A stretch of DNA of 64,000 nucleotides from positions 89,714,001 through 89,778,000 of the forward strand of contig JANJGN010000021.1 of the NCBI GenBank assembly GCA_026770705.1, in the 5' to 3' direction. The notes beneath the pieces are model-generated. The model did not search any database and was not told the origin of the DNA. It saw only the letters and a program-made list of their open reading frames with translations. The position numbers and the translations under genes are program-made. This document shows positions 7,916-45,039 of this stretch, one piece after another. Each line of letters starts with the position of its first letter. Positions within the stretch are counted from its first letter, which is position 1. The stretch comes from Isurus oxyrinchus. Lineage: Eukaryota.

Positions 7916-8227
7916 TACATTGCTTGCATTACTCTTCGCATGGTCGCGTATTTAGCATGGACGTTTGCACTAACTCAAAAGGCTACAATAATTATTTTTC
8001 CCATTGTAATGATATCAGTTGAAGTTCCCTCATTTTTGTTAATGCTATTATAGTTGCAATGTTAAAACGCTGCAGGAGACATTCCCAAAGCTTAACATTT
8101 AAATTTGCAGCAAGGGAAGATCTAGAACAGAAGGGCAAGATTGACAGATATAGAGGAGTTGTAAAACAATTCCGATAGTTCTTAATCGGTTTCTGCGCTT
8201 TAATTATTTCCATTGCTGTTTCTCTAG

Positions 8228-8748
8228 TTGATTTTGAACTGGATCCAGATACGGCAGATCCACGATTTTTGCTCGCGACAGATCATCGCAGCGTTCGATG
8301 GACTGAGAATGTACAGAACTTCACCGAAATTCAAAAGAAGTATTTTGGAACCTACGTTTTATGGGGTACTAAAGGATTCGCATCAGGGAAACACTATTGG
8401 GAGATACTGGCAGATGAAGGAACTGTTTGGTGTGTCGGTATATCGTCACTGAATTTCCGGACAAAAAAAGGAATAAGGTCATCTCCAAAAGACGAATACT
8501 GGGCTGTGCTGCTGTGGAACATAGGTAGAAGATTCTACAAAACGAGGTCAATGGGCACTTTCATTAGAATCATTGAATTGCTCAAGGTAGGAGTTTATCT
8601 CAACTGTGATGAAGGGACACTGACGTTTTATAATCCTGAAGATGATACCCCTGTCTACACGTTCACTGGAAAATTCGTTGACAAAATGTATCCTGTATTC
8701 AGATTTTTATTTGCTGAATCCAGAAATAATGGTTTAACAATAGTCTAG
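8228..8748 (+). CDS. Terminal exon encoding a PRY-SPRY (B30.2) domain of a butyrophilin- or TRIM-type protein
   Basis: Acceptor ctgtttctctag| at 8227. Frame reads (V)DFELDPDTADPRFLLATDHRSVRW (PRY LDPxTA motif) ... GFASGKHYWEI ... WCVGI ... KVGVYLNCDEGTLTFYN ... VYTFTGKFVDKMYPVF, open to TAG at 8746-8748. Confidence 0.95.
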
Positions 8749-42404: not shown

Positions 42405-43590
42405 ATTCGGAGAAACACTTGTAGACACTGGCGAACACTTGCACACGCTTAAAATCAGTTAAAATCACCAGCAAACACTTGTGAACCTTTGCAAAGTTCG
42501 TGTGAACACTTAACAACATAAGAACTTACGACTTAAGTGCAGGCCCTAAGACCTGCGTTACAATTCCTTAAGATCATGGCAGATCTGACTGTGGCATTAA
42601 CTCCATTGTCCTCCCTTCCCCAATAACTCAGGAGTCCCTTGTAGATAAAATAAAATATCTAACTCAGCCTTTAATATGTTCAATGGCCCAGCCTTAACTA
42701 TTGTCTGGGTGCATAAGGGACTTCAAAGATTATAAGCACTCGAAAAAAATCCTCCTTATCTCAGTCTTTAATAAGAGACCACTTATTTTGAAATATATGT
42801 CCATATATCTTTCCCCACATGTTTTCAGCATTTCCCCTTTAATTTCCCTCGGAATAATATGTGTCAAACAGATTATTCAGTTTTTTTCTGAACTCCAATG
42901 ATTATTAGACCATATTCCTCAACCATTCTTCATAAAACAACCCGTTCATCCCAGAAATAAACCTAGTAAACAAGGCAAAGCACTTAAATGAATAACACAT
43001 GGAGGCCCTTGAAAATACTTGTAGGCACTTGGAGGTTCTTGCAAACACTTCCAATAATGTATATAGATATGCTATAAAACACTTACGTGGACTTGGTAAC
43101 ACCACTAAATATTTGAGCGTACTGAGAAGAAACACATAAAAACCCATGTAAAGTCTCGAACGCACTTTGGAGTATATAAAAGGGCTTTACAAGCACTTAA
43201 GATCACCTTGAAACAATTGAAAGTAACTGAAAGCATTTAAAGCACTTGAAGCTCTTGAACACACCTGAAAGCATTTTCAAGTGCTTAAAACACTTAAAAT
43301 CATTTAACAGAAAAAACACCTATAAACACTTGAAAGCATTCGAAAGTACTTATCAACAACTACTGCACTGCAAGTCCCCGTGAAACATTCATAATTTTTT
43401 TGTAAATAACTGAAAGCACTTAATATAATTAAAACACTTAAACACCTGAAAACTCTCGGAAGCTCTTGTAAGCTCTTGTAAACGTTTAAAACACTTGACA
43501 ACACTTTAACGCAAACTTCGAAGAGCAACTGGAAGTGATTTCAAAATGTTGAAATAGTTAAAAACAGCTTAAAAACGTTACAAAACTCCT
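42405..43590. repeat. Degenerate ~10-bp tandem array (consensus about AAACACTTGA / AAAGCACTTG), split by a CR1 3' fragment at ~42515-42970
   Basis: Many variants: aaacacttgt, gaacacttgc, aaagcattta, aagcacttga, agctcttga, aaacacctga, aaacacttga. Confidence 0.8.
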
Positions 43591-43831
43591 GCCTCCAATT
43601 ACGTTTTCGGAGACGTAACTTCGTCGCATCTGCACCTTACCACTAGCCCTTCTGAATTACTTTGACGACGGTTCCATTGATGGAAGAGGCTGTCCTGGCT
43701 AACAAGTAGTTAGCAGCACAAATTCAAACGTGGTTAACGGCGTGTGCTATGCCACTTAGCTCAAGAATTAGGCTGACATAAACCAGAGCCAATGCTCTTT
43801 AAGCCATGTTACTCTCTTTCTGAAACGATCT

Positions 43832-44134
43832 TCAACCACTGAAGCCATACAGGGTCCGCCCCTGGCGCTTCAGGGTGTAGACAACATCCATGGCCATCAC
43901 TGTCTTGTGCTTGGCGTGTTCAGTGTAGATGACCAAGTCTTTGATAACATTTTCCAAGAAAACCTTCAGGACTCCGCGGACCTCCTCGTAGATGAGGCCG
44001 GAGATGCGCTTGATGCCCCCGCGGCGGGCGAGGTGCCAGATGGCCGGCTTCATGATACCCTGGATATTATCGCGAAGGACTTTGCGGTGCCACTTGGCTC
44101 CGCCTTTTCCCAGCCCCTTACCACCTTTCCCTCA
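43832..44134 (-). pseudogene. H4: Histone H4 pseudogene (residues 3-102 plus stop; ATG-S-G missing; R3 codon is TGA)
   Basis: Indel-free 101 codons: [99 protein letters not shown]. Confidence 0.96.
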
Positions 44135-45039
44135 CTTATCCTTGGACTGTTGTAACAAGCTGTGCGCCCACCCCCTCCCCCTCCCCCGCCCCCTCCCTGC
44201 CCGCCTCCCGCCGCAACCCAACCCATGTCAAATCCACTGCCATTGCTCAATTTCTGCACCATTAGGCCCGTTTGCGTCCAGGAGGCTAACATTTGGCCGG
44301 ACTTTTGTGGTTACTGACAAAGCGGAGGATTTCTCCATTGACCATTTCAAAACTTATGAACTTGCCTTGTTCATTGGTTTGAGCAAGAATTTCAACTTCA
44401 TGATGTAGAACATTACAGCAGCGCGATGATCAGTGAAGTCTTGTAGGGATGGACATTCCATGTGACAGACCAGTGACATCACAAACTGGACAAACGCCCG
44501 TTGTGGTCAATTTTTTTTTTTTAGCTCAGATACAGTTCAGTTTCTCCTATAATTTTAAAGAAAAGCACATGTAACAACTTTTAAATAGTTCATAAAGTTT
44601 TAAATGCTTTAACAGACTATGACTGCCAAGTGACTGCCTCTCGGAAGCACGTTGGTGAAATGGCTTTGCTTTGTAACAGGAGCTGATTGCCCATAGTGAG
44701 TCTTGCAATACTTAATAATATCGGATAAAAGAGCAAACAGTTGCTTTAAAAAAAAACTCAGCTCCCTTGCCACACCAGGAGCACACGAATAACTGCCCAT
44801 CCCCTACCATCCTGGTCTGAAAATGCACAGAATGTGCTTGGAGTGATTCAGAAGTTGTTTCCCATACTTAATTCTTCAAATATGTACAAATATATGCAAA
44901 TACCAAGATTTATCATGTTATTAGAGAACTAATACAAAGCCCTATCAGCAAAGGTAGAATTAGAAAACACGTGTTTTTCCGCTTTTTTTCAATAATTTAT
45001 TATTTATCTGCAGTAAACTTCCATTTCCCCCTATTGTCT

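Follow-up and report, generated by a model that had tools for sequence, protein, structure and literature searches.

A decayed, tailless histone H4 retrocopy in Isurus oxyrinchus and the intact H4 variant gene of the same genome

A stretch of 64 kb (64,000 nucleotides) from the 4.98-Gb genome of the shark Isurus oxyrinchus, hereafter the window, contains a decayed histone H4 reading frame that raises the question of its origin. A first-pass annotation described it as an orphan pseudogene whose ancestor carried V54, K67 and S69, residues that it likened to those of apicomplexan H4, and offered two explanations: a parasite or protist H4 integrated into the germline, or a so far undescribed H4 variant family of one lineage, spread by transposition. 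The reading favoured here, to which we would give a probability of about 0.85, is that the element is a dead, 5'-truncated, tailless mRNA copy of an intact H4 variant gene of the host, likely made by a LINE reverse transcriptase, and that germ cells or early embryos likely contain the variant in abundance. As a tailless retrocopy the pseudogene is nothing unusual; the actual finding is the gene from which it derives.

The H4 frame lies on the minus strand and encodes residues 4-102 between two stops (translation of 43832-44134), within a full element that spans 43808-44133. Its parts and flanks are as follows.

43832..44133, minus strand: coding part of the H4 variant retrocopy, starting at base 2 of codon 3 and running through the stop codon; no start codon
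43834-43832, minus strand: stop codon of the H4 frame, from the translation
43808..43831, minus strand: initial 21-24 bases of the 3' UTR of the parent; no poly(A) after it
44133..44134, minus strand: 5' truncation junction; the T at 44134 is flanking DNA
43981-43979, minus strand: codon 54, GTC (Val), present already in the parent variant
43942-43940, minus strand: codon 67, AAA (Lys), decay of the parent's AGG (Arg)
43936-43934, minus strand: codon 69, TTG (Leu), CpG decay of the parent's TCG (Ser)
43450..43807, no strand: 3' flank, with one genome match only
44135..44500, no strand: 5' flank, with one full-length match in the genome search

The remaining matches of the 5' flank are 43-48 bases long and fall within a G-rich simple repeat at ~44167-44214. 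Much of what had been read from the letters holds: the H4 pseudogene and its stop codon are there, codons 54, 67 and 69 are GTC, AAA and TTG, and searches of the 64-kb window for other histone genes and for a sequence similar to the histone stem-loop were both empty (Rfam was likewise negative for L001). The 3' end falls 13-16 bases short of where the parental stem-loop would start, and no target-site duplication (TSD) was found at the copy, the best exact match being 3 bases. A function for the copy was considered and rejected, since it has neither a start codon nor a stem-loop and carries R17W, R35W, R36H and R78H; judged from its sequence, it has no likely function. A decayed, AT-rich tandem repeat of 38 bases (43191-43276, surroundings 42980-43590) adjoins the insertion, and a PRY-SPRY exon of the TRIM or butyrophilin type is found at 8179-8745 on the plus strand (E 3e-13).

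Decay of the copy has been concentrated at CpG, as the annotation proposed. Eleven of its 17 private changes are CpG transitions, that is, 11/54 CpG bases are affected vs. 6/248 other bases; CpG transitions account, among others, for R17W, T30M, R35W, R36H, V43I, R78H, T82M, A89T and G101S, and also for S69L. One proposed transition does not belong to this group. The supposed change of R3 from CGA to TGA marks the truncation junction: codon 3 reads AGA in the parent and in most sister copies, and the apparent TGA consists of the flanking T at 44134 and the GA of that AGA.

The element is not an orphan. An intact parent gene is located on the same contig, 26 Mb from the window (L004, G000:C21:115,680,752), and the copy shares parental sequence up to ~24 bases beyond the stop (to 43808-43811). 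The parent has a TATA box, an open frame and a histone stem-loop that scores 40.4 bits against Rfam Histone3 (RF00032; cut-off 34), and is intronless with the stem-loop at its 3' side, as in a replication-dependent histone gene. Its protein differs from canonical H4 at 2/102 residues, T54V and A69S, and keeps R67; in coding DNA the variant and canonical H4 genes are equal at 266-268/312 bases. The window copy agrees with the parent at 275/302 coding bases, or 91%, compared with 238-242/302 for 12 canonical H4 genes and 249/302 for a second H4 variant. At the 43 sites that separate the parent from canonical H4, the copy is parent-like at 37, canonical-like at four and neither at two. No second parent gene was seen among the best 40 of 435 candidates or in the 380 kb around the parent, and in a DNA search of the genome the matches were almost all confined to the H4 part of the query (best 40 of 421 candidates). 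The named proteins closest to the genome's histone genes are those of lamniform sharks. By these comparisons, descent of the window copy from the host's own H4 variant gene can be regarded as demonstrated.

How, then, should the apicomplexan resemblance be understood? It is real: V54/K67/S69 occurs in an H4 of Theileria (P0002) and I54/K67/S69 in one of Cardiosporidium (P0310), which is what might be expected if a parasite or protist H4 had entered the germline and then decayed. However, the window copy shares its 3' UTR and synonymous sites with the host parent, and lacks R77 and S89, which are common to the apicomplexan proteins P0002, P0065 and P0310 (Babesia included). The same protein is, moreover, present in other elasmobranchs. 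The residue counts cover the 36 near-full sister copies, the five short ones being excluded: V occupies position 54 in 33 copies, R occupies position 67 in 33 (with K in just two), and S occupies position 69 in 28 (with L in five). Given these counts and the parental residues, V54 and S69 were inherited and K67 arose by decay, so the likeness to the Theileria and Cardiosporidium proteins amounts to convergence plus one private change. The annotation was therefore right about an ancestral S69 (TCG, as in the parent) and mistaken about an ancestral K67. By a condition that the annotation itself had named, apicomplexan origin of the window copy is refuted, since the host has an intact gene encoding V54 and S69; horizontal origin of the copy has hardly any probability left. 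An ancient transfer of the parent itself is opposed by its being only two residues off canonical H4, by its metazoan stem-loop and by S69 in two neighbouring H4 genes. What survives of the original proposal is a lineage-specific H4 variant dispersed by transposition, with V54/S69, not V54/K67/S69, as its signature. An assembly chimera or contamination is just as implausible. No single contig covers the whole stretch, and the 5' junction is crossed by 27 reported bases only (in X1, X2 and X5), below the 31-base rule of the method, because the adjoining simple repeat was skipped. The 3' junction, however, is crossed by contigs of X1 and X2, which extend 46-49 bases over it and may be the assembly's own sample, and by X5 and X10 from a second organism (30-33 bases); X5, which differs at 29/841 bases, crosses the 5' junction too. 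Long residence in the host, as the annotation argued, is consistent with the CpG decay and some 40 sister copies.

Since the junctions are present in a second organism, the insertion is likely older than the split of the two species. In a tree of 46 rows, from which four canonical genes were left out, the copies form a ladder that leads from old copies through the window copy to the young copies with the parent, with values of 98/92 and 98/93 at the forks around the window copy (the bootstrap is rough). When the majority sequences of the old copies (19) and of the young ones (12) are set against the parent, 27 coding positions differ, although some weak majorities are themselves CpG decay; 26 of these differences are silent, and the remaining one is at a CpG hot spot. 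A single master gene was thus altered at silent sites only while it was shedding copies. Over this history, the GC3 of the parent lineage increased from 0.66 in the old copies to 0.83 today.

The ends of the sister copies reveal what kind of molecule was copied. Forty-two dispersed loci were examined, and 41 of them align to the parent (L059, a pattern match, failed to do so and was dropped); L050 is one more likely copy. At least 41 dispersed copies bear parental UTR sequence. The 5' start is at -25/-26 in 14 of the 41, and five of these start within one base of a duplicated target site, so that -25/-26 is the likely transcription start; the TATA box is included in none (0/41). At the other end, 29/41 copies stop at +19 to +28 after the stop codon and 39/41 before the stem (+37). 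Histone mRNA is cleaved five bases after the stem-loop, and one copy (L056) ends exactly at this mature mRNA end, at +57, five bases beyond the stem-loop. A poly(A) run abuts the junction in none of the 41 copies; two (L027 and L062) were flagged as A-rich, in neither case next to the junction. As in copies of a transcript, UTRs are in, the promoter is out and the flanks are unlike those of the parent; the copies are RNA-derived and tailless. Two of them, L002 and L008, have their upstream flank in common and may not be independent events. Three others (L011, L020 and L060) directly follow one position of a common repeat (within ~20 bases), and a common repeat likewise lies upstream of L002/L008/L025 and of L022/L051; this arrangement might reflect template switching to repeat RNA or an insertion hot spot.

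TSDs of 8-16 bases accompany 11/41 copies, as opposed to 5/1640 mismatched flank pairs in the control (threshold, 8 or more bases), and in seven of the 11 the TSD overlaps the mRNA end by 1-7 bases. Internal priming in the single-stranded 3' UTR of the variant's stem-loop-bearing, non-polyadenylated mRNA would have taken place at a nicked genomic site, and target-primed reverse transcription would then have copied the mRNA; the insertion later decayed, mostly at CpG. We infer with considerable confidence this sequence of internal priming at a nick and target-primed reverse transcription, and the putative copying enzyme is likely a LINE reverse transcriptase. The copy ends, the TSD overlap and the lack of poly(A) fit the internal-priming model of tailless retropseudogenes set out in the available part of PMC5322556. 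The mammalian L1 target consensus, TT/WAAAAWW, is not evident by eye at the 11 TSD sites; the family thus works like the therian L1 class and is not filed as part of it.

The parent belongs to a mixed cluster of divergent stem-loop histone genes, with 23 stem-loops in two parts (G000:C21:115.352-115.421 Mb and 115.626-115.691 Mb; L088-L095 and L034-L041), which lies apart from the canonical arrays on contigs C37, C40 and C48. Besides three H4 variants, all with S69 (V54/S69; S1T/I65/S69/R79/L84; I65/S69), it comprises three H2A genes that encode a single protein, five genes of H2B type, an H3 gene with Q125H and some eleven H1-like genes, of which several are arginine-rich. Six of its proteins have exact matches in other sharks. 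One H2B-type gene (L035:5805-6235; C21:115,635,805) has a C-terminus that is shifted relative to the intact copy at 115,352,175-579, through either a frameshift or an assembly error. An H1-like stem-loop gene (L037:660-1274; C21:115,650,660), with copies at 115,685,6xx and 115,421,0xx, encodes a product without a Pfam linker-histone match, in which a Gln/Glu run replaces part of the globular domain. Among the neighbours of the cluster (88/335 open frames scanned), a SAPC2-type exon (L032:5543-6154, minus strand) and a TRAF/MATH exon (L044:257-1195, minus strand), which flank its second half, were alone informative and are candidate synteny markers.

Retrocopies are not spread evenly over these genes. 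With 21-base junction patterns allowing one mismatch, the variant H4 gave 37 dispersed matches (control 0; its pattern was designed after copies had been seen) and one cluster H2B gene gave 31 (control 0). A DNA search with the cluster H2A found 37 dispersed copies among the best 40 of 744 candidates, and all nine examined were real. By the same kind of search, the H1-like gene at L037 has six dispersed copies, which terminate just ahead of the stem-loop. The cluster is not uniformly affected: junction patterns gave one dispersed match for the H3 gene (L090:8519-8926; C21:115,378,519) and 10, against five in the control, for the second H4 variant. Canonical H4 yielded 153 matches; among the 100 listed, 79 are on C37, C40, C48 and C83 and 21 are dispersed on C1-C23. 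All eight dispersed matches sampled are real copies, which means that canonical H4 also leaves tailless copies. One variant gene has accordingly left more copies than at least 79 canonical array matches together, a difference of about a hundredfold per gene, in which the figure for canonical H4 is a minimum, since the C37 and C40 genes are one base off the pattern and 53 of the 153 matches lie outside those listed. At one locus (L076:831-1705; G000:C10:79.64 Mb), copies of the H2B and H2A variants are arranged head to tail with 10 bases between them, and an 11-base duplication encloses the H2A copy; the two copies may stem from a single double event or from two insertions at one site.

Two other explanations accept both the parent and the RNA origin. 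Copies without a TSD might be cDNA or RNA patches captured in double-strand-break repair, without a LINE endonuclease. In 30/41 copies, among which are the window copy and the whole group of 13 young near-full ones (L002, L003 and L005-L015), a TSD was not detected, and the 5' ends are ragged, from -17 to +11. However, the 3' ends of these copies share the narrow window of the TSD-bearing ones, and the young short copies L024 and L051 do have TSDs, of 11 and 10 bases; some LINE clades produce short TSDs or none. Capture during repair is therefore improbable. It is a different matter whether copy number reports on transcript abundance or rather on mRNA stability or ease of UTR priming, the variant being an ordinary replacement or housekeeping isoform with near-neutral substitutions. 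Copies can arise from any gene active in dividing germ cells, V54 and S69 each recur singly across eukaryotes (23 and 22, respectively, of 209 fetched H4 proteins), and T54V and A69S may be near neutral. This explanation is nonetheless doubtful, as H4, H2A and H2B, whose 3' UTRs are unrelated, share an excess that the neighbouring H3 does not show, and as the protein has stayed constant across sharks, and nearly so in skates, despite drift at synonymous sites.

The excess in three genes with unrelated UTRs favours abundance over sequence-specific priming. Retrocopies are inherited only if the mRNA is present in germ cells or in embryo cells that precede the germline, and the copy counts point to the cluster histones as a germline or early-embryo set. 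The variant and the H2A and H2B of the same cluster were probably a main histone source in the cells that transmitted the insertions; H3.3 may supply H3 in those cells. Whether these were male germ cells or, instead, oocytes or cells of the early embryo is close to an even call. The testis is favoured by analogy, because the testis H4 (H4t) of Oikopleura dioica has A69S and the cluster has arginine-rich H1-like genes; in the part of PMC3156773 available, residue 69 of H4t is said to be buried and to point towards helix 3 of H4. The main alternative is maternal storage in oocytes, for which zebrafish Slbp2 provides a parallel (PMC6239174, as far as its available text goes). A run search found no RNA run with more than 0.06 of the query words: metagenome RNA runs had 0.04-0.06 and two presumed-RNA runs 0.00.

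The variant is not confined to Isurus. The identical protein occurs on 23 contigs; it is named in Chiloscyllium punctatum and Rhincodon typus, has Elasmobranchii as its UniRef taxon and is databased as 'histone H4-like', and two more accessions point, by their neighbouring accession numbers, to Scyliorhinus torazame and Amblyraja radiata. Skate proteins also carry V54 and S69, among them P0068 and P0070; in those of Rhinoraja and Leucoraja the two residues occur together with S1T. In the region search, 100% identity was found in just two skate proteins among the 120 of 7216 proteins listed; one further protein, P0287, combines V54/S69 with other changes. Consecutive accession numbers in three sharks suggest that the linkage of the H2A and H4 variants is conserved. 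Sharks and skates separated more than 250 million years ago. The parent is a non-allelic H4 isoform kept by purifying selection. A skate variant-like H4 that lacks the start Met (P0087, located on a contig of 170 Mb) and five H2B variant-like proteins of the basking shark, spread over five further contigs (P0376, P0378, P0379, P0381 and P0382), suggest that the same retrocopying takes place in other elasmobranchs.

Comparable systems are few. Human tailless retropseudogenes, among them 51 5'-truncated histone copies (Noll et al. 2015, PMC5322556), resemble the shark copies, as far as the source is available, in their non-polyadenylated source RNA, absence of oligo(A), preferred internal single-stranded 3' ends, TSDs overlapping the RNA end and 5' truncation; they differ in that the process was dated to the therian ancestor and its L1, in the target consensus, and in that a TSD is missing from most shark copies. 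The H4t of Oikopleura is >3200-fold testis-enriched and present in sperm, according to the portion of PMC3156773 at hand; like the shark variant, it has A69S and belongs to a separate cluster of divergent histone genes, but it carries V21I and L22M and no T54V, and its testis expression was measured, whereas that of the shark variant is deduced from retrocopies. A69S likely arose independently in the two lineages. Human H4.G (H4.7, H4C7) is another vertebrate H4 variant in a replication-dependent cluster; the accessible sections of two reviews (PMC11742582, PMC8015243) describe it as 85% identical, C-terminally truncated, polyadenylated and unable to form stable nucleosomes, as well as the sole human H4 variant, H4 variants being infrequent. 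The shark variant, in contrast, keeps its stem-loop and all but two residues and is conserved in sharks and skates. Within the same genome, canonical H4 genes are also intronless, stem-loop-bearing sources of tailless copies; they differ in T54, A69, other UTRs and far fewer dispersed copies per gene. Two shark genome papers, in the parts available, touch on histone clusters in passing, and no H4 variant of sharks was found described in the literature covered, nor were any histone retrocopies from sharks, most subscription papers being outside the search. A vertebrate-wide retrocopy survey requires exon junctions and drops families with more than five paralogues, according to the available text of PMC13320880, and a survey of that type would miss histone retrocopies.

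Taken at its broadest, the parent would be part of an undescribed germline histone set of elasmobranchs: an H4 with T54V and A69S and its own H2A and H2B, kept since the shark-skate split, with A69S independent of Oikopleura H4t, mRNAs exceeding those of the canonical arrays, and copying without poly(A) by a non-mammalian LINE for tens of millions of years. The chances for and against this full picture seem evenly balanced. At the least, the parent is an H4 variant of long standing in elasmobranchs, and its germline signal, though indirect, is sizeable. A vertebrate variant with the same sequence in different shark orders, and almost the same in skates, would stand out among H4 proteins as an old exception maintained by selection, and the occurrence of A69S in a second chordate opens this residue to tests in nucleosomes. 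Through the retrocopies, the range of tailless retroposition reaches beyond therian mammals; they also provide a record of germline transcription and of the synonymous evolution of their parent.
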